Notes: generated from the sequence alone by a model not told the origin. Shown: positions 1,311 to 10,015, counted from the stretch's first letter. The stretch: 64,000 bases of DNA from an uncultured archaeon (GCA_964342815.1 CAYFHS010000003.1:96001-160000); one strand, 5' to 3'. Translations and numbers: made by a program.

Positions 1311-2609
1311 ATGAGCAAAAAGAGGGTGAAACTGAATCTCGGCTGTGGCATAGTCTACAGGCCAGGATACATCAACGTGGATAAGTTCGATAAAAGGGTG
1401 GCCGATGAATTCGGGGATGCGATCTCGCTTCCTTATAAATCATCCATTGCAGATCTTATCGAGGCTATTCACTTACTCGAACATTTCGATCACATTCATT
1501 CTATTTATGCATTAAGCGAATGGCTCAGGGTACTTCGCCCAGGGGGAAAATTGATAATTGAAACCCCTGATCTGGAACTTTCGGTAAAAAAGATCAAGGC
1601 CAATGACAGTTCCGGGCAAGACTCCACTTTAAGGTGGATATTTGGTACAGGTAGCTCCGGAATGAGTCATGGAACAGGATTTTCTTATAAATCATTGAAA
1701 ACCACTCTTGAGGAGATCGGTTTTACCGGTGTTACCAGGAAAGAACAAAACACGCACAAATATGAACCGGGGATGCGTATGGAATGCATTAAACCGACGA
1801 AAAAGGACAACGAGTACATTTTTTCAATGTTCCGAGCAAGGATACTGAAAGGTGAGTCTGATTACGATTCGGAGATGCTGGATTCTCTGGAGGAACACTG
1901 CCTTCATGAGATAAGAAAATCTTTCATCGAAAAAGGTAATGGAACACTTGCGGTGGCGGTTGCGAAATTGGCCGTATGCATCCCGGAAATTTCACGGGTA
2001 TTTCTTGATACCTGTCATAAGTTTGAGCTAATTGAGAATGAAGGTTGTGCCCGGATTAGGAACTTACTAAATTATCTGATCGAGATCGATTTTCACAAGA
2101 AATTACTTCCATTATGGGAAAAGGCAAAAAAGAAATTGGGTAATGCTGACAAAGATTTTCGTCAATTTCTCAGGCGAATAGAGGACCTTATAGCGAAATT
2201 GGCTAGGGAAAAAATCAGTTACAGAGAAAGACTTTCTTATATATCTAATCTCAAAGCATCCGACATTCCCATGTTCAATTTCTATTACGTTCAACTGGAG
2301 GCAAGGATACTATTCAACAAAGGCGTGAAATGCTTCGACCAAAAAAAATACTCAGAAGCGACGGTACTATTCGAAAGGTCCGCGAAAATCAATCCTGAAA
2401 ATTTCTTATTGTACTGGAACCTGGCAAGATTGGGTGCGATCATGTCGAAAAAGGACTTCTGTATTTCTGATAATTACAACAAAGCTTCTCTGTTGATTTC
2501 AGATAATAAGATTAGAAAAATATTGGAGGACGAGAAGAAATCCTTCGAGAACCATGGGGGGAAAAGCGTACCGCGTGGGCCACAATCGGAATTTTCGGTT
2601 CAAGTTTAA
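1311..2609 (+). CDS. Class I SAM-dependent methyltransferase with C-terminal TPR region
   Basis: LNLGCG motif I, HLLEH and LRVLRPGGKL motifs; TPR-like helices (KKYSEATVLFERSAKINPENFLLYWNLARL). Confidence 0.8.
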   Translation: MSKKRVKLNLGCGIVYRPGYINVDKFDKRVADEFGDAISLPYKSSIADLIEAIHLLEHFDHIHSIYALSEWLRVLRPGGKLIIETPDLELSVKKIKANDSSGQDSTLRWIFGTGSSGMSHGTGFSYKSLKTTLEEIGFTGVTRKEQNTHKYEPGMRMECIKPTKKDNEYIFSMFRARILKGESDYDSEMLDSLEEHCLHEIRKSFIEKGNGTLAVAVAKLAVCIPEISRVFLDTCHKFELIENEGCARIRNLLNYLIEIDFHKKLLPLWEKAKKKLGNADKDFRQFLRRIEDLIAKLAREKISYRERLSYISNLKASDIPMFNFYYVQLEARILFNKGVKCFDQKKYSEATVLFERSAKINPENFLLYWNLARLGAIMSKKDFCISDNYNKASLLISDNKIRKILEDEKKSFENHGGKSVPRGPQSEFSVQV

Positions 2610-2713
2610 CGAGATTTAGAACTCTCAAATATGGAGTAAAATTTGATGTTCATACCAAAAAGGATATAAACATGTAAGGAGATTGGATTTATACTACGGG
2701 AGGTGTCCCGGTT

Positions 2714-3190
2714 ATGATAAAAAACAGATTGAGCGATATCGGTGGGAAATTGAACGTCAGCTTGGAGGATATAAGGGGCATGAAGGGCGAACGTCGTAAA
2801 AAGAAATATTTATATCCGTTTCTTCTCGCGGTAGTTGGGGGAATTGCAGCTCTAATGGGCTGTTTGAAAAGTGGAAACGGCGGTGGTGGGGGCGGTAATG
2901 GAACGGTGGTGAATGAAACCATAAATACTGAAAATAATTCCGGGACTTATCCGTACATGATCCCGTCATTCATCGGTATTATGGGGGTGGGAATGGTTTT
3001 CAGGGCCAATAAATACCGGAAAAAGCAGTTGATACTCGTTTTATCGGCAGTAGCGATACTGATTATCGGTATTTTACTGCTCTTTAATGGATCCGATTTG
3101 GTTGAAGCCGCAGAAAATCTTGTCAGGAACGGTAATGAAACCGGGAACTTCAGCGAGGCAGTGGATTACGGAGTTTATTCTAGGAAGTAA
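2714..3190 (+). CDS. Array paralog 1: 3-TM membrane protein with YPY and C-terminal YGVYS motif
   Basis: Leader RLSDIGGKLNVSLEDI, lipobox-like LMGC, TYPY, ends DYGVYSRK; several N-x-S/T sequons. Confidence 0.8.
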   Translation: MIKNRLSDIGGKLNVSLEDIRGMKGERRKKKYLYPFLLAVVGGIAALMGCLKSGNGGGGGGNGTVVNETINTENNSGTYPYMIPSFIGIMGVGMVFRANKYRKKQLILVLSAVAILIIGILLLFNGSDLVEAAENLVRNGNETGNFSEAVDYGVYSRK

Positions 3191-3195
3191 AATAA

Positions 3196-3588
3196 ATGGA
3201 TAATGGAAAGCTGAATGAGATTGGGATGAAACTTGAAGTCTCGGAAGAAGACATAATACAATTAAAAAGAAGATACCTACTGATAAAGATATTATGCCCA
3301 ATTATCGGTTTATTAATTTCAATGTTTATTCCAATGACGATAGATTCAGTGACATCCACATATAATCACCAGAATAATTCTTCGTACCCTTACGCAATTC
3401 CGTTTTTGCTTTTTGTGGGAACCGGAAGTTTGGAATCACCCGATAAAATAAAACGAAGGGGTAAAATTATAATTCTTATTACTGCAATCATTACTTTATT
3501 TCTTTCGATAATGATATGGAAGGAGGGTTCCTTTCGAGTATCATCATTGTATGGTGTTTTTTCAAGTAAAAAATTGAAGATCAGATGA
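3196..3588 (+). CDS. Array paralog 2
   Basis: Leader KLNEIGMKLEVSEEDI, SYPY, tail LYGVFSSKKLKIR. Confidence 0.8.
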   Translation: MDNGKLNEIGMKLEVSEEDIIQLKRRYLLIKILCPIIGLLISMFIPMTIDSVTSTYNHQNNSSYPYAIPFLLFVGTGSLESPDKIKRRGKIIILITAIITLFLSIMIWKEGSFRVSSLYGVFSSKKLKIR

Positions 3589-3638
3589 TAAAAGCAACAG
3601 AGAGATATGAGTTATGCATTCAAAGGAACGGTAGGTTC

Positions 3639-4097
3639 ATGGACAAAGGAAAACTGAATGAGATCGGCGGGAAATTGGATGTCAGAATTGAGGATATACG
3701 GGGGATGAAGGATGAGCGTCGTAAAAAAAAATATCTCTATCCGTTCCTTCTTGCTGTGGTGGGAGGTATTGCAGCACTTATGGGTTGTTTGAAGAGTGGA
3801 AACGGCAGTGGAAATGAAGCTTCGGCGAATAATACTACCGGGACTTATCCATACATAATCCCGTCCTTCATTGGTATAATGGGTGTGGGAATGGTCTTTC
3901 GGATCAATAAAAACCGAAAAAAGCATTTGATACTCGTTTTATCGGCAGTGGCGATGTTAATTACCGGTATTTTTCTGCTCTTTAAAGGATCCGGTTTGGT
4001 GGAGGCAGCAGAAGATGTTGTCAGAAACGGAAATGATTCCGGGAATTTCAATGGTTCGATAATTTACGCAGCATATTCATTGGAGCAAAATACATGA
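3639..4097 (+). CDS. Array paralog 3 (recent duplicate of paralog 1)
   Basis: Start placed at ATG 3639 by alignment to the family leader (MDKGKLNEIGGKLDV); LMGC, TYPY, tail IYAAYSLEQNT. Confidence 0.8.
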   Translation: MDKGKLNEIGGKLDVRIEDIRGMKDERRKKKYLYPFLLAVVGGIAALMGCLKSGNGSGNEASANNTTGTYPYIIPSFIGIMGVGMVFRINKNRKKHLILVLSAVAMLITGIFLLFKGSGLVEAAEDVVRNGNDSGNFNGSIIYAAYSLEQNT

Positions 4098-4513
4098 ACG
4101 AAGATAAGCTAAATGAGATATGCAAGAAATTGGATTTGCCCCAAGAGGACCTATCGAAAATAAAACGGCAATACCTTACTGTAAAAATTGTATCGCCCTT
4201 TATTGGAATTTTCATCACAGCGCTCGCCACTCTCGGGGGATATTTAATGGGGAAAAATGCCCACACGAAGCTCGTCAATAGAGAGACCGGCTCTGTATAT
4301 CCCTATGTAGTACCATCTTTGTTTTTACTGGGCAGTACCTTTAATACCTCAAAAAAATCCATCATCAGAAAACGGAACTTGATTCTCATTTTCGCTGCCG
4401 TTTTGACGACCATTCTATCAGTTATCGCGTATACCGTTGCATTTGATGCGGGACAACCCGTGGAATATTACAGCGGTTCCATAATGTATGGTGTGTATTC
4501 AAGAGAACAGTAG
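4094..4513 (+). CDS. Array paralog 4
   Basis: Leader KLNEICKKLDLPQEDL, VYPY, tail VEYYSGSIMYGVYSREQ; ATGA overlap with paralog 3. Confidence 0.8.
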   Translation: MNEDKLNEICKKLDLPQEDLSKIKRQYLTVKIVSPFIGIFITALATLGGYLMGKNAHTKLVNRETGSVYPYVVPSLFLLGSTFNTSKKSIIRKRNLILIFAAVLTTILSVIAYTVAFDAGQPVEYYSGSIMYGVYSREQ

Positions 4514-4640
4514 GGTCACGAACGAGGAAATGTGGGCAAAGATAGGCAAGAAAAATTTGTACTATGAGAAGACTTATTGAAACGTAATATTGAAAAAAAT
4601 TTAAACACCTTTAAAATAATACAAAAACATAGGATAAACG

Positions 4641-6038
4641 ATGAAAAAACGTGTAACGGTTGTCGTTCTCGGTCACGTGGATCACGGTAAGTCAACCCTA
4701 GTGGGACGCTTTCTGTTCGAAAAAGGCGCGGTCCCCCCCGAAGAGATCGAGCGCTACGCCGTCCTGGGGGCCAAGACGGGAAAGACCAGCTTCAAGTATG
4801 CCTGGGTCATGGACCGAGGCGACGAGGCACGAAGGCGAGGGCTCACTCTGGACCTCAATTTCGCCGACGTGGAGACACGAAAAAGAGAAATACATATCAT
4901 CGACGCACCGGGTCACAAGAGCTTCTTGAAAAGCATGATAACCGGTACCACCGGCGCCGACGCCGCACTCCTGGTGGTGGATTCCCAGGAAGGCATAATG
5001 CCCCAGACCAGGGAACATGCCCAGCTCGCAAAGCTCATGGGTATCCATCACTGCGTTGTAGTCCTCAACAAGATTGACAAGGTGGGTTACAACCCAGAGG
5101 CGATAGGACGCTCCGCCTCCGAACTTAGAGATATGCTGATAGACCTGGGAATTCCAAAAGTTGACGTAATCCCGGTTTCGGCATGGGAGGGCCAAAACCT
5201 CACTTTGCGCGGGGACGCCATGTCCTGGTACAACGGCCGAACGCTAGAAGAGGTGCTGGACAACCTGGAACAGAAGGGAACACCTGCGGGGGGTCCGTTC
5301 CGGATGCCGGTCATGCAGGTGATGAAGATAGGGGGTGTTGGGATCGTGGCGCTGGGGCGGGTGGAGAGCGGGGAGATATCGAAAGGCGACGAGGTGATCG
5401 TAGCCCCAGGAAATAAGATAGGAGTGGCAAAGTCCATAGAGGCCTACGGAAAGAAAATACAGAAGGCCGTGGCCGGTGAGACCGTAGGAATTGCACTTCG
5501 AAACATCGGTCGTTCGGATATTAGCAGGGGGGACGTGCTGGGGCCCGTGGACGATCCGCCGCGCCCCGTTGAGGAGTTCACGGTAAAGATGGTCCTTTTC
5601 GGCGATGCGGGCGTGGTGAAGGTGGGCTGGTCGCCCTATATTCACTGCCATACCGCAGCAGTACCAGTGAAGATCGTTGCCATAGAAATGAAGTACCGGC
5701 CCGACAGCGGCGAGGCCGAGGGAGAGGCGGATGCGGGATTCCTGGTAAAGGGTGACGCGGCGCTGGTTCGTTTCAGGCCGTTGAAGCCGCTGATCATAGA
5801 ATCGGGTGAGAAGTTGCCGGACATGGCACGCTTTGCCCTCAGGGCCGGTAAAACAACCCTTGGTGCCGGGTCCTGCGTCTCCAAACGCGCAGCGGAGGGG
5901 CAGGGGGTGGCAAGGGGCGAACCGAAAAAGAAGGGTTTCTCCTACAAATGGCAAAAAGTAGGAAAGGCAGCGCGTGACCAGAAGCGGCGAAAGAATAAAG
6001 AGAACCTCGACATCTGGGGCAGGCCTATCAGAAAGTAG
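4641..6038 (+). CDS. Divergent EF-1A (aEF1A)-like translational GTPase with basic C-terminal extension
   Basis: G1 GHVDHGKS, G2 RGLT, G3 DAPGH, G4 NKID, G5 SAW; EF-1A-type SFKYAWVMD insert; domains II and III present; extra ~45-aa Lys/Arg-rich tail. Confidence 0.85.
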   Translation: MKKRVTVVVLGHVDHGKSTLVGRFLFEKGAVPPEEIERYAVLGAKTGKTSFKYAWVMDRGDEARRRGLTLDLNFADVETRKREIHIIDAPGHKSFLKSMITGTTGADAALLVVDSQEGIMPQTREHAQLAKLMGIHHCVVVLNKIDKVGYNPEAIGRSASELRDMLIDLGIPKVDVIPVSAWEGQNLTLRGDAMSWYNGRTLEEVLDNLEQKGTPAGGPFRMPVMQVMKIGGVGIVALGRVESGEISKGDEVIVAPGNKIGVAKSIEAYGKKIQKAVAGETVGIALRNIGRSDISRGDVLGPVDDPPRPVEEFTVKMVLFGDAGVVKVGWSPYIHCHTAAVPVKIVAIEMKYRPDSGEAEGEADAGFLVKGDAALVRFRPLKPLIIESGEKLPDMARFALRAGKTTLGAGSCVSKRAAEGQGVARGEPKKKGFSYKWQKVGKAARDQKRRKNKENLDIWGRPIRK

Positions 6039-6053
6039 AAGAGGTCATAGATC

Positions 6054-6494
6054 ATGAACGAGAAAAAGCTGGCTGAGATCGGTGATAAACTGGACATCTC
6101 GAAAGAGGACATTAGCACGGTAAAAAGACAATACAAATTGACGAAAATTATTTCTCTCATTACTGGAACTATCACGGTTTTCCTATCCTATGCAATAGGT
6201 AGTTACCGAGGGAACGCAATGGGGGAGAAGGCGGCTCAAGAGATCTTTGATAGAAATCTTGCGACATACCCTTTAGCAGTACCAAGTCTATTCTTTTCCA
6301 GTACGGTCATTATAGGATCAAAGGATTACTTGAAATCCATCAAGATGAAAAGAAATATCTTTCTATTGGTAATATTCGTACTGACGATCATTCTTTCAAT
6401 TCTGGTATATTCATCAGCCTACGAAAACGCTTATGACGCGGCCCAGGAGCACATTCCTTTTCCCGTATACGGCGTATATTCAAAGGAACGGTAA
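6054..6494 (+). CDS. Array paralog 5
   Basis: Leader KLAEIGDKLDISKEDI, TYPL, tail VYGVYSKER. Confidence 0.8.
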   Translation: MNEKKLAEIGDKLDISKEDISTVKRQYKLTKIISLITGTITVFLSYAIGSYRGNAMGEKAAQEIFDRNLATYPLAVPSLFFSSTVIIGSKDYLKSIKMKRNIFLLVIFVLTIILSILVYSSAYENAYDAAQEHIPFPVYGVYSKER

Positions 6495-6498
6495 CTCA

Positions 6499-6924
6499 AT
6501 GGATAAAGAAAAACTAGCGAAGATCGGCGAGAAGCTCAACGTTTCCAAGGATGAAATAAATAGATTACGGAAACGCAGGATTTTAACAAGGATATTCGCA
6601 CCAATCTTGGGAATCCTGGGAGTCTTTTCCTCTCTGGTAACCGGGCTCGTCCTGGGTCGGGGTGGCGGGCCCTATCCGTACGGAAGGCCATCATTTGGTT
6701 TTTTAGGTTGCTCCATTAGTGGGACTATAAGCTTTGGAAGTATTATTGGCATTCTAGTTATGATACGAAAGACCAAAAAGAACGGAAAGTCGGATAAATA
6801 TCTCCTAGTAGTACTGATAGCCACATTATTACTATCTCTAATTACACTGGTTGCGGGTTTAGCTGTGGGTGAGGATAATTTTTCTGCAACGCCGAAATAT
6901 TCAGTATATTCAATGGAACGGTAA
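6499..6924 (+). CDS. Array paralog 6
   Basis: Start placed at ATG 6499 (MDKEKLAKIGEKLNVS); PYPY, tail KYSVYSMER. Confidence 0.8.
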   Translation: MDKEKLAKIGEKLNVSKDEINRLRKRRILTRIFAPILGILGVFSSLVTGLVLGRGGGPYPYGRPSFGFLGCSISGTISFGSIIGILVMIRKTKKNGKSDKYLLVVLIATLLLSLITLVAGLAVGEDNFSATPKYSVYSMER

Positions 6925-6928
6925 CTAT

Positions 6929-7390
6929 ATGAATAAAGAAAAACTGGCCGAGATCGGCGGAAAACTCGATATCACCAAGGAAGAGTTTAGAAATATCCAC
7001 AAACAGCGTCGCAAAGAAAAGATTAACACCATTCTCACAGGTGGCATAATCTCAATAATTTCTATGCTAACAGGTTATTTCATTGGTAAAAATAGTGAAC
7101 CAAGAATGGAGCATCGGGGATACCCTTATGGAATGTTGGGAAGTAGTTTTTGTTGTGGTGCCGGTATGGGGGGAATAATGGGAGGCTTTGGTTTCCTTTA
7201 CTTACTGACTTACCTTAATGGAAAAAAGAAACATAAAACGATGATGTCGATTCTGGTATTATTCTTCATTATTTTATCGGTAATAGCAATCATTTTTGGA
7301 CATGAAGTAGGACGACCTGTGGAATATTACAGTGGGGCGATCGATTATGGTGTTTTCTCGAGGGATCAAAGAGTTGTAAATAATGAATAA
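6929..7390 (+). CDS. Array paralog 7
   Basis: Start placed at ATG 6929 (MNKEKLAEIGGKLDIT); GYPY, tail VEYYSGAIDYGVFSRDQ. Confidence 0.8.
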   Translation: MNKEKLAEIGGKLDITKEEFRNIHKQRRKEKINTILTGGIISIISMLTGYFIGKNSEPRMEHRGYPYGMLGSSFCCGAGMGGIMGGFGFLYLLTYLNGKKKHKTMMSILVLFFIILSVIAIIFGHEVGRPVEYYSGAIDYGVFSRDQRVVNNE

Positions 7391-7847
7391 TGAGAAATTG
7401 ACCGAAATCGGCAGTAGGCTGGACGTTTCCGAGACGGATATGGATGGTATTAGGAAACGTTATCGTCTCACAAAGATAATCACAACGATAGCAGGGGGAC
7501 TTGTTGTCATCGTTTCGGCAATAATCGGTTACATGGCGGGTAACAGCGCAGCAGGGAGGGATGCAGCTAACGACGCCGGGGCGATACTAGTGAACCGCGA
7601 GACTGGCGAGGTTTATCCTTATATGATACCTGTCTTTCTGGGACTGGTGGGCGGTATGTCCGCGTCCGGTCTCAGAAAAAGGACAAAACTGGTCATAATT
7701 GCGGGTATGATCCTGACTACAATACTCGCGGTCTTGGGTTATATGCTTGCGCATGGTATGGCCTACGACAACGTCTACGACGCAGCACGGGGAATAGAAT
7801 ATTACAGTGGGGCAATCGAATATGGCGTTTACTCGAAAGAAAGGTAA
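7383..7847 (+). CDS. Array paralog 8
   Basis: Leader KLTEIGSRLDVSETDM, VYPY, tail IEYYSGAIEYGVYSKER. Confidence 0.8.
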   Translation: MNNEKLTEIGSRLDVSETDMDGIRKRYRLTKIITTIAGGLVVIVSAIIGYMAGNSAAGRDAANDAGAILVNRETGEVYPYMIPVFLGLVGGMSASGLRKRTKLVIIAGMILTTILAVLGYMLAHGMAYDNVYDAARGIEYYSGAIEYGVYSKER

Positions 7848-8916
7848 TAAAAAAACCGCTCCCGATTACAGCATCGGATGCGCCGTGTGGGAAACCACCC
7901 TCGCGTGCAACATGAAATGCACACATTGCGGCTCAAGCGCAGGCAAGGCTCGTCCCGACGAACTTGACACCGGAGAGTGTATCAAACTTGTCGAGGACCT
8001 AGCTCAATTGGGATGCGGGACTGTGGCCCTTATGGGCGGCGAGCCTCTGGTGCGGGACGATTGGAAACAGATCGCCGGGTGCGTCAAAGACCTTAATATG
8101 GACCTCTCCATCGTGTCGAACGGTCTTCTTATGGAGAAATACATGGATCGGATAAGTTCACTTGAGCCCAAGGTTGTGGGAATAAGCCTCGACGGACTCA
8201 AGAAAACCCACGATTCCATCAGGCGAAAGGGATCTTTCAAAACCGCTATGAATGCTATAAAACTTCTCAGAGATAATGATATTCAAGTGACCGTAATAAC
8301 CACTGTTAGTAAGAAAAATTTCAATGACCTCACCAGGATGAAAGACCTTGTAATCAAAAAGGGCGTGAACTGGCAGATACAGGTGGCCATGCCAATGGGC
8401 AATTTCGACCGGGAACATCTCATAAGCGACGAGGACTACTACGCCGTGGCCATGTTCATAGCCTCCCAGCGGATAAAACACCCTTTTGAGGAATTACCCG
8501 TTATCGGCGCGCACTGTTTCGGTTATCATTCAAAACTGCTTCCGGACTCTAACACGTGGAAAGGATGCACCGCAGGTATAAGCAGTCTTGGTATTACGAG
8601 CAACGGCGGCGTGGCGGGATGCCTGTCAATGGGAAATAACAGGTTCATCGAAGGAAACATCAGGAAAAGATCGATAATAGATATCTGGAAAGATCCGAAT
8701 TCTTTTCGCTACAACAGAAAATTCAAGACCTCCGACCAGGGGGGGAATTGCTCGGGGTGTCGCTACGGTGAAAGCTGCAAGGGAGGGTGCAACTCCATGT
8801 CATACAGCCTGACTGAAAAGATGCACAACGACCCGTACTGTTTCAAAAGGATAGAGGAAGAGATCATAGGAGTCAAAAAGGGGATCTTCGAACGGATAAA
8901 GACTCGTCTCCGGTGA
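7822..8916 (+). CDS. Radical SAM/SPASM domain protein (peptide/protein maturase-like)
   Basis: CNMKCTHC (CX3CX2C), GGEP, SPASM CSGCRYGESCKGGC-X16-C plus upstream Cys residues; first ATG at 7822 overlaps paralog 8 by 26 nt (GTG 7807 is the alternative). Confidence 0.9.
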   Translation: MAFTRKKGNKKTAPDYSIGCAVWETTLACNMKCTHCGSSAGKARPDELDTGECIKLVEDLAQLGCGTVALMGGEPLVRDDWKQIAGCVKDLNMDLSIVSNGLLMEKYMDRISSLEPKVVGISLDGLKKTHDSIRRKGSFKTAMNAIKLLRDNDIQVTVITTVSKKNFNDLTRMKDLVIKKGVNWQIQVAMPMGNFDREHLISDEDYYAVAMFIASQRIKHPFEELPVIGAHCFGYHSKLLPDSNTWKGCTAGISSLGITSNGGVAGCLSMGNNRFIEGNIRKRSIIDIWKDPNSFRYNRKFKTSDQGGNCSGCRYGESCKGGCNSMSYSLTEKMHNDPYCFKRIEEEIIGVKKGIFERIKTRLR

Positions 8917-9262: not shown

Positions 9263-9344
9263 TGCGGAAGACCGGATTCGAACCGGCGAACCACTGAGGA
9301 ACAGATCTTGAGTCTGTCGCCGTTGACCTCTTGGCTACTTCCGC
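9263..9344 (-). tRNA. trnL: tRNA-Leu (anticodon CAA)
   Basis: Acceptor stem GCGGAAG/CTTCCGC, D-arm AGCCAAGAGGTCAACGGC, anticodon arm ACAGA-CTCAAGA-TCTGT, long variable arm, T-loop GTTCGAATC; T-tract downstream. Confidence 0.95.
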
Positions 9345-9421: not shown

Positions 9422-10015
9422 CTAAAGCAGGTCCATGGCCGCTGCCAAGGCCCCCTTTGTTGCATTCGTTCCATTATCGGCGGTCCCGATAATGACCACA
9501 TCATCATCCTTGAAGGGCGATCTCATTACGTTCTTCAACTGGTGCAATACGCCCTGATCCTGCATTGGTTCTTGATCAGGTGGGAAAGTAAGTCCTTCGT
9601 TGCGATAGACCAGAGTGGTAGCGCCCAGAGCCCCGGCTCTAACTGCCGCGTCCCTCTGTGAGAAACCGTCAGTAATAGAATTACCCTTTCCGGGAACTAT
9701 CACCGCCACATCTTCCGTACCCACGGAGGATTCACCACCCTCTATGGGAATCACCTCGATTCCAATGTCGGTCAGCATCTCTTCGCCCGCGGGTGTTATA
9801 ACGTTCCCGCTTCTTTCGGTTTTCACAAGGCCGGCTTTCGTCAGGCGCCTCAGCATACTTCTGACGCTTCCCTCACCCATGGACAGCTCGCGGGAGAGTT
9901 GTTTGCGGCCGATGGACCCCTTTTTCCGGATAACAAGGAGCGCCATCAACAAGTGGTACTGCTGGAAATACGGCATTGGTCCTGGTGCGCCAGCGGTGGC
10001 GATCTCCATTTTCAT
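9422..10015 (-). CDS. HTH + DUF4443-like protein (putative transcriptional regulator)
   Basis: N-terminal wHTH (IGRKQLSRELSMGEGSVRSML); C-terminal QRDAAVRAGALGATTL motif. Confidence 0.7.
   Translation of the reverse strand: MKMEIATAGAPGPMPYFQQYHLLMALLVIRKKGSIGRKQLSRELSMGEGSVRSMLRRLTKAGLVKTERSGNVITPAGEEMLTDIGIEVIPIEGGESSVGTEDVAVIVPGKGNSITDGFSQRDAAVRAGALGATTLVYRNEGLTFPPDQEPMQDQGVLHQLKNVMRSPFKDDDVVIIGTADNGTNATKGALAAAMDLL

Follow-up and report, generated by a model that had tools for sequence, protein, structure and literature searches.

Does the radical S-adenosylmethionine (SAM) enzyme encoded in this stretch of DNA modify the eight small membrane proteins encoded beside it, and if so, by which chemistry? 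The stretch (referred to here as the window) comprises 64,000 nucleotides (nt) from a Thermoplasmatota archaeon, and coordinates are counted from its first letter. It encodes eight paralogous proteins (P1 to P8; referred to here as precursors) that end in a common tyrosine motif, a radical SAM/SPASM enzyme (rSAM), a SAM-dependent methyltransferase, and a paralog of translation elongation factor 1alpha (EF-1alpha). The overall best explanation, in which we have moderate confidence, is that positions 1311 to 8916 hold a three-part protein-modification cassette with a splicease-like rSAM and an EF-1alpha insert. The genes are as follows (aa, amino acids; ORF, open reading frame).

1311 to 2609, + strand: SAM-dependent methyltransferase with a helical TPR-like domain, 432 aa (Pfam Methyltransf_11/23, TPR_1)
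2714 to 3190, + strand: precursor paralog P1, 158 aa, tail D-Y-G-V-Y-S (from the ORF listing and alignment)
3196 to 3588, + strand: precursor paralog P2, 130 aa, tail L-Y-G-V-F-S
3639 to 4097, + strand: precursor paralog P3, 152 aa counted from an internal Met, tail I-Y-A-A-Y-S
4094 to 4513, + strand: precursor paralog P4, 139 aa, tail M-Y-G-V-Y-S
4641 to 6038, + strand: EF-1alpha paralog, 465 aa; GTPase motifs intact, basic extension at the C terminus; probable passenger
6054 to 6494, + strand: precursor paralog P5, 146 aa, Tyr-Pro-Leu variant, tail V-Y-G-V-Y-S
6499 to 6924, + strand: precursor paralog P6, 141 aa, tail K-Y-S-V-Y-S
6929 to 7390, + strand: precursor paralog P7, 153 aa, tail D-Y-G-V-F-S
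7383 to 7847, + strand: precursor paralog P8, 154 aa, overlapping the rSAM start, tail E-Y-G-V-Y-S
7822 to 8916, + strand: radical SAM/SPASM enzyme, 364 aa (Pfam Radical_SAM and SPASM); alternative GTG start at 7807

The ORF listing and the alignment bore out the original prediction of eight co-oriented paralogs (130 to 158 aa, + strand) with these tails, a Tyr-Pro-Leu variant in one of them, and the sequence EYYSG[SA]I in three (P4, P7, and P8). That prediction also described a tandem array. The eight genes are real, but their continuity did not stand: the EF-1alpha paralog lies between P4 and P5 and splits the array 4+4, and both this gene and the methyltransferase gene had been missed. A GGAGGTG ribosome-binding site is located 8 nt upstream of P1, and the junctions within the array measure 5, 50, -4, 4, 4, and -8 nt. 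P8 overlaps the rSAM gene by 26 nt, such that the rSAM ATG (7822) falls inside the TAT-GGC codons of P8 Tyr147-Gly148. Eight is the largest number of precursors seen in an array among the loci of this cassette. Bacterial-type promoter and terminator scans of the window, which are ill-suited to an archaeon, gave results at chance level.

Pairwise identity among the paralogs is just 25 to 32%, except for P1 versus P3 (74%). Across the eight sequences, the leader residues L6, I9, and L13, a Tyr-Pro pair, and the Y..S of the tail are all invariant. The leader helix has the consensus K-L-x-E-I-G-x-K-L-x-V-x-x-E-D-I, Tyr-Pro-Tyr (Tyr-Pro-Leu in P5) opens the second hydrophobic segment, and the tail reads X-Tyr-[Gly/Ala/Ser]-[Val/Ala]-[Tyr/Phe]-Ser. 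The residue X that precedes the tail Tyr is D, L, I, M, V, K, D, and E in P1 to P8, respectively (i.e., seven different residues). The X-Y-G pattern of splice sites is present in six of the eight paralogs, the other two having Y-A (P3) and Y-S (P6). No Pfam or NCBIfam model fits the precursors. P3 is a recent duplicate of P1 (DNA identity, 82 to 85% over 157 to 220 nt) in which the tail has diverged to I-Y-A-A-Y-S, and it may represent a decaying or altered substrate.

Hydropathy analysis of the precursors indicated a Lys/Arg-rich N-terminal segment, strong hydrophobic segments 1 and 3, a weaker segment 2 that starts at Tyr-Pro, and a short Lys/Arg-rich loop preceding the third segment. Because the N-terminal segment is rich in Lys/Arg, the N terminus is predicted to be cytoplasmic; with three spans, the positive-inside rule would then place both tyrosine motifs outside the cell. 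The apparent signal sequences of bacterial homologs also point to an exported tail. Overall, each precursor is thought of as a predicted cytoplasmic two-helix leader at the N terminus, two or three hydrophobic segments, the Tyr-Pro pair, and a flexible tail at the C terminus.

The array is not due to chance, because a profile built from the paralogs detects arrays in seven other related genomes (E-values down to 1e-45). The precursor profile and the rSAM match exactly the same 8 of 41 related genomes, and the rSAM is present in 17 of 201 sampled genomes of the phylum. We fetched 79 loci of the rSAM clade for neighbourhood comparison. The archaeal loci belong to Thermoplasmatota, Promethearchaeota (including the cultured Promethearchaeum syntrophicum MK-D1), Undinarchaeota, Heimdall-, Hod-, Hel-, Hermod-, and Thorarchaeota, and a metagenome-assembled genome labelled Nanohalarchaeota, and the bacterial loci belong to Elusimicrobiota, Chloroflexota, Syntrophus/Smithellaceae, and Nitrospiraceae. 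A methyltransferase homolog adjoins the rSAM in 64 of the 79 loci, and precursors with a leader and tail of this kind were recognised in at least 59, a count based on automated detection that misses some precursors (a second pattern and visual inspection were required for Thorarchaeota-type leaders and for short peptides without a leader). In P. syntrophicum MK-D1, the cassette occupies about 1.571 to 1.588 Mb of NZ_CP042905.2 and includes three precursors. Clustering of the neighbours at the 79 loci revealed no other recurring gene family, and no protease or exporter. Taken together, these gene neighbourhoods show the methyltransferase, the precursors, and the rSAM to be a conserved three-part family.

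These comparisons bear on two further points of the original prediction. Arrays routinely without the rSAM, and rSAM genes in unrelated contexts, had been named beforehand as evidence that would count against it; neither occurred, given the same 8 of 41 genomes and the synteny at 79 loci. The architecture had also been considered unfamiliar for archaea, whereas many Asgard and Thermoplasmatota archaea, as well as members of several bacterial phyla, share it. The precursors belong to no named family, and neither the rSAM nor the methyltransferase reaches any specific NCBIfam cutoff. No paper on this clade was found in a literature search to which the main splicease survey (Scott et al., 2022, Chem; reportedly with 939 predicted systems) was external. 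That survey is said to span bacterial and archaeal genomes (PMC11626197), and the clade may therefore be among its uncharacterised predictions.

To define which parts of the precursors are conserved, we counted residues over 93 archaeal-type precursors (numbering as in P8). Only Tyr78 (91/93), Pro79 (91/93), and Tyr147 (92/93) are nearly invariant. Next in rank are Val149 (81/93), with T, A, I, or S as its substitutes, and Gly148 (72/93), where N, D, S, A, or E can occur instead. A wide range of residues (D, R, E, L, K, M, Y, or A) precedes Tyr147, and Tyr-Pro is followed by Y, F, I, L, H, A, or W. At +3 of the tail, Tyr and Phe replace each other freely (48/35), and this aromatic residue never ends the protein, since 2 to 9 further residues come after it. 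The invariant parts are thus a putative docking helix and two tyrosine motifs, as expected of substrates.

Precursors from other lineages vary around these parts. A Helarchaeota locus encodes soluble Lys/Pro-rich peptides of 46 to 65 aa that hold hardly more than G-Y-P-[F/Y] and Y-G-V-Y. A Thermoplasmata subgroup (loci L062 to L067, L070, L073, and L074) has two tandem rSAM paralogs, one methyltransferase, and soluble precursors of 57 to 85 aa, including peptides of 57 to 67 aa that consist of the leader helix and G-P-x-Y-P-G-x-x-Y-G-T-[V/I]-S-x-x-D-F; in one precursor of the subgroup (L062:7606-7863), the core Y-K-A-G-T-x-Y-G-T-[V/I]-S occurs three times over. In Elusimicrobiota precursors (L094:10527-10838 and others), the leader helix is accompanied by a hydrophobic segment with L-A-A-C at its end, which by eye resembles a lipoprotein signal, and a compact Cys-flanked core (C-G-P-Y-P-G-Y-P-C-G-T-R-Y-Y-T-V-S), in which Tyr, not Gly, follows the conserved Tyr. 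Four loci of the Syntrophus, Smithellaceae, and Nitrospiraceae types encode secreted-looking precursors with a Kunitz/BPTI protease-inhibitor domain directly before the tail, which reads Y-P...K-Y-G-x-[V/S]-x-R-D-F (L083:7574-8014, L102:7595-7999, L098:7571-7999, and L103:7595-7999). The Kunitz domain was identified by Pfam in L083 (E-value, 3.9e-15) and L102 (22.5 bits; cutoff, 21) and by eye in L098 and L103. A bacterial precursor with duplicated motifs (L023) contains equal numbers of Tyr-Pro and tail motifs.

The rSAM has a Radical_SAM domain (residues 24 to 173) with the CxxxCxxC motif (C29/C33/C36) and a SPASM domain (residues 249 to 313), and eight C-terminal (SPASM) cysteines are invariant in 19 orthologs. 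A Pfam scan detected no N-terminal RiPP recognition element (RRE; RiPP, a peptide that is made on the ribosome and modified after translation). The original prediction of a full SPASM Cys set, no RRE, and a start codon inside the Tyr-Gly codons of the last paralog was thus confirmed by Pfam, the orthologs, and the sequence. The enzyme has 1476 homologs, with identities of 57 to 65% still found across archaeal phyla, Asgard archaea included. The nearest solved structures are SkfB and PqqE, with low scores. In a same-genus assembly (L027:7798-8888, G001:C92; L060:7986-9094), the rSAM is split over two frames with internal stops (residues 1 to 183 and 179 to 364), reflecting either a frameshifted pseudogene or an assembly error; this locus holds fewer precursors.

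In the NCBIfam ranking, the best model for the rSAM is TIGR03913 (GDL motif peptide-associated radical SAM/SPASM maturase; 220 bits; cutoff, 591.75), followed by TIGR04103 (206 bits; cutoff, 725), second of 78 matching families, and TIGR04133 (rSAM with lipoprotein partner, Bacteroidales; 156 bits; cutoff, 425). The resemblance to Y_X(10)_GDL and lipoprotein-associated rSAMs noted originally is therefore real. The same two families lead for three divergent members of the clade, namely, the window rSAM, an Elusimicrobiota enzyme, and the second paralog of a tandem pair (TIGR03913/TIGR04103, 220/206, 177/165, and 211/182 bits, respectively), and the next families score 119 to 156 bits (heme-pathway enzymes, MftC, and TIGR04133). 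Given that the scores are far under the TIGR03913 and TIGR04103 cutoffs, the rSAM is related to the TIGR04103 equivalog without being a member of it, and forms a separate clade whose reaction may differ. By our own mapping to InterPro entry IPR026482, we take TIGR04103 to be the PlpX family. That entry is named for PlpX (PMC11002830).

Both flanking families in this ranking have features in common with the cassette and features that set them apart. TIGR03913 is the top model for all three members tested; however, only positions 20 to 368 of its 477 match, the cassette rSAM falls under its cutoff, and the alignment contains no GDL motif in any of the eight paralogs. We know of no established function for the TIGR03913 family. 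The substrates of TIGR04133 enzymes are membrane-tethered, as are the precursors here, whereas the rSAM is under the cutoff of this family, the lipoprotein partner does not have this leader helix, and there is no methyltransferase partner.

We then modelled the complex of the rSAM (19-row alignment) with P8 (28-row alignment). The predicted complex had an ipSAE of 0.77 (runs, 0.83, 0.77, and 0.76), whereas the best of three controls reached 0.00; among solved complexes, 58 of 80 attain this mark, as do 2 of 110 pairs that were mismatched, a calibration that is only roughly valid for alignments that were self-made. The runs shared at least 83% of contacts, with a partner pLDDT of at least 56. 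The modelled interface has two parts. Residues 1 to 30 of P8 lie on rSAM residues 204 to 219, 239, and 348 to 352, and residues 139 to 153 (including Tyr147-Gly148) lie on rSAM residues 19 to 22, 67 to 69, 94 to 98, 117 to 120, 155 to 159, 183 to 185, and 226 to 235. Spacing and conservation identify the rSAM residues of the second part as the barrel strands' C-terminal ends together with the linker that leads to the SPASM domain. The leader helix is thus predicted to dock on the enzyme surface, with the Tyr-Gly tail inside the barrel, a modelled layout like that of binary spliceases, for which models likewise show activation by a leader helix and a comparable placement of XYG (PMC11414181).

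The synteny at 79 loci, the co-occurrence at the genome level, and a complex model that passed its controls make it very probable that the adjacent rSAM takes the paralogs as substrates and modifies them at the tail tyrosine, and this part of the original prediction is well supported. Its framing as a multi-precursor RiPP system fared less well. A classical RiPP pathway, with a short precursor whose leader is cleaved off by a protease of the pathway and whose core peptide is exported, differs from the cassette, in which the precursors are membrane proteins of 130 to 158 aa and no protease or transporter recurs at the 79 loci; because no protease or exporter is conserved, the cassette looks like protein modification instead.

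The third part of the cassette, the methyltransferase, lies 104 nt upstream of P1 and consists of a methyltransferase domain (residues ~1 to 165) and a helical domain (residues ~187 to 415). An AlphaFold2 model (pLDDT, 92.9) showed a compact class I fold and, after it, about 230 residues of helical repeats. Across 28 orthologs, no variation was seen in the SAM-motif residues G11, G13, and D24 or in E57, H58, G112, G117, H120, and R373. The enzyme is probably active, since its SAM-binding glycines and acidic residue are invariant. A Foldseek search with the model retrieved only generic class I small-molecule and protein methyltransferases, giving no clue to the substrate, and NCBIfam and Pfam returned only generic methyltransferase and TPR matches. 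The helical domain may hold the precursor.

Regarding the chemistry of the rSAM, the original prediction favoured a -2-Da aromatic cross-link. This is not the best guess, because the closest tested family is that of the tyramine spliceases, which act on X-Tyr-Gly and give -135 Da. The conservation pattern in the 93 precursors follows the X-Y-G logic of spliceotides (PMC11414181, PMC10533398). Spliceotide systems are ternary (PlpX/PlpY-PlpA and PcpXYA) or binary (RhaX/RhaA, RcsX, and RasX) (Morinaka 2018 and Scott 2022, cited in PMC11414181, PMC11626197, PMC10533398). The binary spliceases have no RRE; an alpha-helix in the precursor leader activates them, and structure models put XYG in their active centre (PMC11414181). 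Characterised spliceotides inhibit proteases via a ketoamide (PMC11626197).

The cassette is like spliceotide systems in that the PlpX-family model is among the two best for the rSAM, an invariant Tyr stands in X-Tyr-Gly with a variable X, several precursor genes accompany one enzyme, and a protease-inhibitor theme is present (here, the bacterial Kunitz fusions). Like the binary spliceases, the enzyme has no RRE, and the prediction has the leader helix bound to it while the YG site sits inside the barrel. In contrast to spliceotide systems, the cassette has a low model score (206 versus 725 bits), a second invariant motif (Tyr-Pro), an obligatory methyltransferase, a Gly that is not strict, no protease or exporter, and a mainly archaeal distribution. 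Moreover, spliceotide substrates are Nif11 or NHLP peptides, whereas those considered here are membrane proteins of 120 to 170 aa or, in bacteria, secreted proteins or proteins with a membrane or lipid anchor. Neither Pfam nor clustering of the neighbours revealed a Y protein or an RRE at the cassette loci.

On the basis of the invariant Tyr, the mostly conserved Gly, the diversified X, the leader helix on the enzyme, and the Kunitz fusions, tyramine excision at X-Tyr-Gly is our first-ranked candidate for the rSAM chemistry, held at slightly less than even confidence. Several points weigh against it, of which the low scores, the non-strict Gly, the features that splicing leaves unexplained, and the fit to a rival triplet keep it there. 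The chemistry is suggested by homology alone, the rSAM is far under the trusted cutoffs (206 versus 725 and 220 versus 592 bits), and the splicease status of TIGR03913 members could not be confirmed from the literature. In 23% of the precursors, including two of the eight paralogs in the window, N, D, S, A, or E takes the place of the Gly after the tail Tyr. Splicing does not explain Val149 (87% conserved), the invariant Tyr-Pro, or the obligatory methyltransferase, and both tyrosine motifs also fit the aromatic-X-X triplet of cyclophane-forming enzymes. Three hydrophobic segments and the positive-inside rule put the tail outside, so modification would have to precede insertion. Finally, the complex model is only roughly calibrated, and the Tyr-Pro motif lies outside its confident interface.

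Under the splicease interpretation, the RRE-free rSAM would dock directly on the leader helix of the precursor and thread the tail into its barrel prior to tail export, as the complex model suggests. By analogy with its nearest characterised relatives, it would then act as a tyramine splicease on X-Tyr-Gly, and the seven different X residues would give rise to a series of ketoamide groups anchored in the membrane. The ketoamide is known as a pharmacophore of protease inhibitors, and a tetrazine reaction for ketoamides has been published (PMC10533398). The methyltransferase would add a methyl group somewhere, possibly at the Tyr-Pro motif, or serve as a scaffold. Because radical SAM enzymes are cytoplasmic and the tail is predicted to be outside, modification of the tail would precede its membrane insertion or export.

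The main rival, which we consider unlikely, is that the rSAM forms a tyrosine cross-link (-2 Da per site), e.g., a triceptide-type three-residue cyclophane at Tyr-Gly-Val and perhaps also at Tyr-Pro-[Tyr/Phe]. In a triceptide-type cyclophane, the aromatic ring of residue 1 is bonded to the beta-carbon of residue 3. Both invariant motifs suit aromatic-X-X, with a beta-carbon always available at the +2 position, and a cross-link explains the conservation of Val149 and Tyr-Pro better than splicing does; such links are also common among rSAM/SPASM enzymes (PMC11851443). The triceptide synthases (XyeB, GrrM, and FxsB type) are likewise rSAM/SPASM enzymes, and their targets are short aromatic-X-X motifs that often occur as repeats or are distributed among several precursors. 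However, their sequence similarity to the window enzyme is much weaker: the XyeB, GrrM, and FxsB-type cyclophane synthase models are outside its 25 best NCBIfam matches (i.e., <74 bits), compared with 206 to 220 bits for the top two families. Their motifs are not limited to Tyr, and position 1 of a cyclophane usually tolerates Trp, Phe, or His, whereas Tyr occupies this position in 92 of the 93 precursors; the Tyr-Pro motif also lies beyond the modelled interface, which counts against this rival.

Another tyrosine-directed radical reaction combined with methylation is improbable in our estimate. Such a reaction could be beta-hydroxylation/oxidation, epimerisation, or C- or O-methylation after radical activation, with one enzyme per tyrosine motif. 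This division of labour would suit two equally invariant tyrosines and two enzymes that always co-occur, the equal numbers of the two motifs in L023, and a methyltransferase that retains its SAM-binding residues. On the other hand, homology indicates no particular reaction of this kind, and some lineages have two tandem rSAM paralogs but still one methyltransferase.

A recent archaeal precedent for a rSAM/SPASM enzyme whose substrate is a protein and not a short peptide is CrpC/CrpA of Methanococcus voltae (PMC13692751). This system differs from the cassette in forming Cys thioether (ranthionine) links, in having an RRE, and in its unrelated substrate and enzyme clade.

The EF-1alpha paralog also needs to be accounted for. 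It is 40% identical to the canonical EF1A encoded elsewhere in the genome, and its GC content is 0.58, compared with about 0.40 in the surroundings. Its basic C-terminal extension of about 50 aa, which ends in D-I-[W/H]-G-[R/K]-P-[I/V], is conserved and absent from the canonical aEF1A of the genome. Relatives that are at least 51% identical over the full length fall into about 57 clusters and are annotated only as GTP-binding protein or EF-1alpha; they represent a distinct, unnamed translational-GTPase subfamily found mainly in Thermoplasmatota. The gene lies inside the array in one genus only (g1; two independent assemblies, G000 and G001), and in the sister genus, it is located on a contig without precursors, apart from the arrays. 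Four of the seven sampled genomes that carry it have no rSAM, and its three metagenomic contexts are variable and mutually unrelated. A TATA-like TTTAAAATAA lies about 25 nt upstream of its start. This box and the GC content fit an inserted gene with its own promoter, and the paralog is probably a genus-specific passenger. Given its position, its promoter may now drive transcription of the rSAM and of the last four precursors.

That the EF-1alpha paralog is instead a working part of the cassette in this genus (for aminoacyl-tRNA delivery for peptide extension, translation-modification coupling, or as a resistant target copy) seems to us very improbable. The gene is co-oriented with the array, lies 15 nt upstream of P5 at the same position in both assemblies of the genus, and has intact GTPase motifs and domains II and III. 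Against this stand its confinement to the arrays of one genus and its separation from them in the sister genus, the carrier genomes without the rSAM and the unrelated metagenomic contexts, the deviating GC content and the TATA-like box, and the fact that the cassette does without the insert in all other lineages. As a component of the system in general, the EF-1alpha paralog was rejected on the grounds that it is inside the array in a single genus, is solitary elsewhere, and is often carried by genomes that have no rSAM.

The last alternative, that the small membrane proteins are partners, immunity proteins, or regulatory proteins of a rSAM that acts on a small molecule or cofactor like its relatives in the heme or mycofactocin pathways, is extremely unlikely: the AhbD, NirJ, and MftC models do match the rSAM (136 to 146 bits) and the tail G-V-Y resembles the C-terminal G-V-Y of the mycofactocin precursor, but at +3 either Tyr or Phe is accepted and never as the C-terminal residue, no heme or mycofactocin genes are nearby, the complex model puts the tail in the barrel, and soluble precursors of 46 to 67 aa elsewhere consist of little beyond the two motifs or of the leader helix and the motifs. 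Mycofactocin-like G-V-Y chemistry was rejected separately (TIGR03962, 136 bits versus a cutoff of 265; a Tyr/Phe tail residue that is not terminal; no MftB/D/E/F neighbours).

Two minus-strand genes follow the cassette.

9263 to 9344, - strand: tRNA gene (57.5 bits with Rfam), located downstream of the rSAM stop at a distance of about 350 nt
9422 to 10015, - strand: DUF4443 protein with an N-terminal winged-helix domain, divergent from and downstream of the cassette

The DUF4443 gene keeps its place beside the cassette in a same-genus genome (88% identity, L027), and its product could be a local regulator.

What the window adds to the family is the eight-gene array, the diversified X residues, the Thermoplasmatota host, and the EF-1alpha insertion. 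A broader picture, which we regard as possible but speculative, is that archaea, including the Asgard archaea related to eukaryotes, and several anaerobic bacteria make a genetically encoded set of membrane-displayed, backbone-edited proteins, in which a new clade of spliceases would install a different alpha-keto-beta-amino acid warhead on each tail and the methyltransferase would finish the products as surface-tethered protease inhibitors; alternatively, the two tyrosines and the methyltransferase would yield an undescribed tyrosine-derived modification. The presence of the cassette in the cultured P. syntrophicum MK-D1 makes direct testing feasible. If the rSAM is a splicease, backbone tyramine excision would be extended from bacterial peptides to archaeal membrane proteins, and a compact RRE-free enzyme, a short docking helix, and a tail tag of roughly 15 residues would be usable in protein engineering. 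Anaerobic archaea would then have a widespread, unrecognised means to protect or arm the cell surface. If the chemistry differs, the cassette would represent a large, conserved, and completely uncharacterised tyrosine-modifying system.

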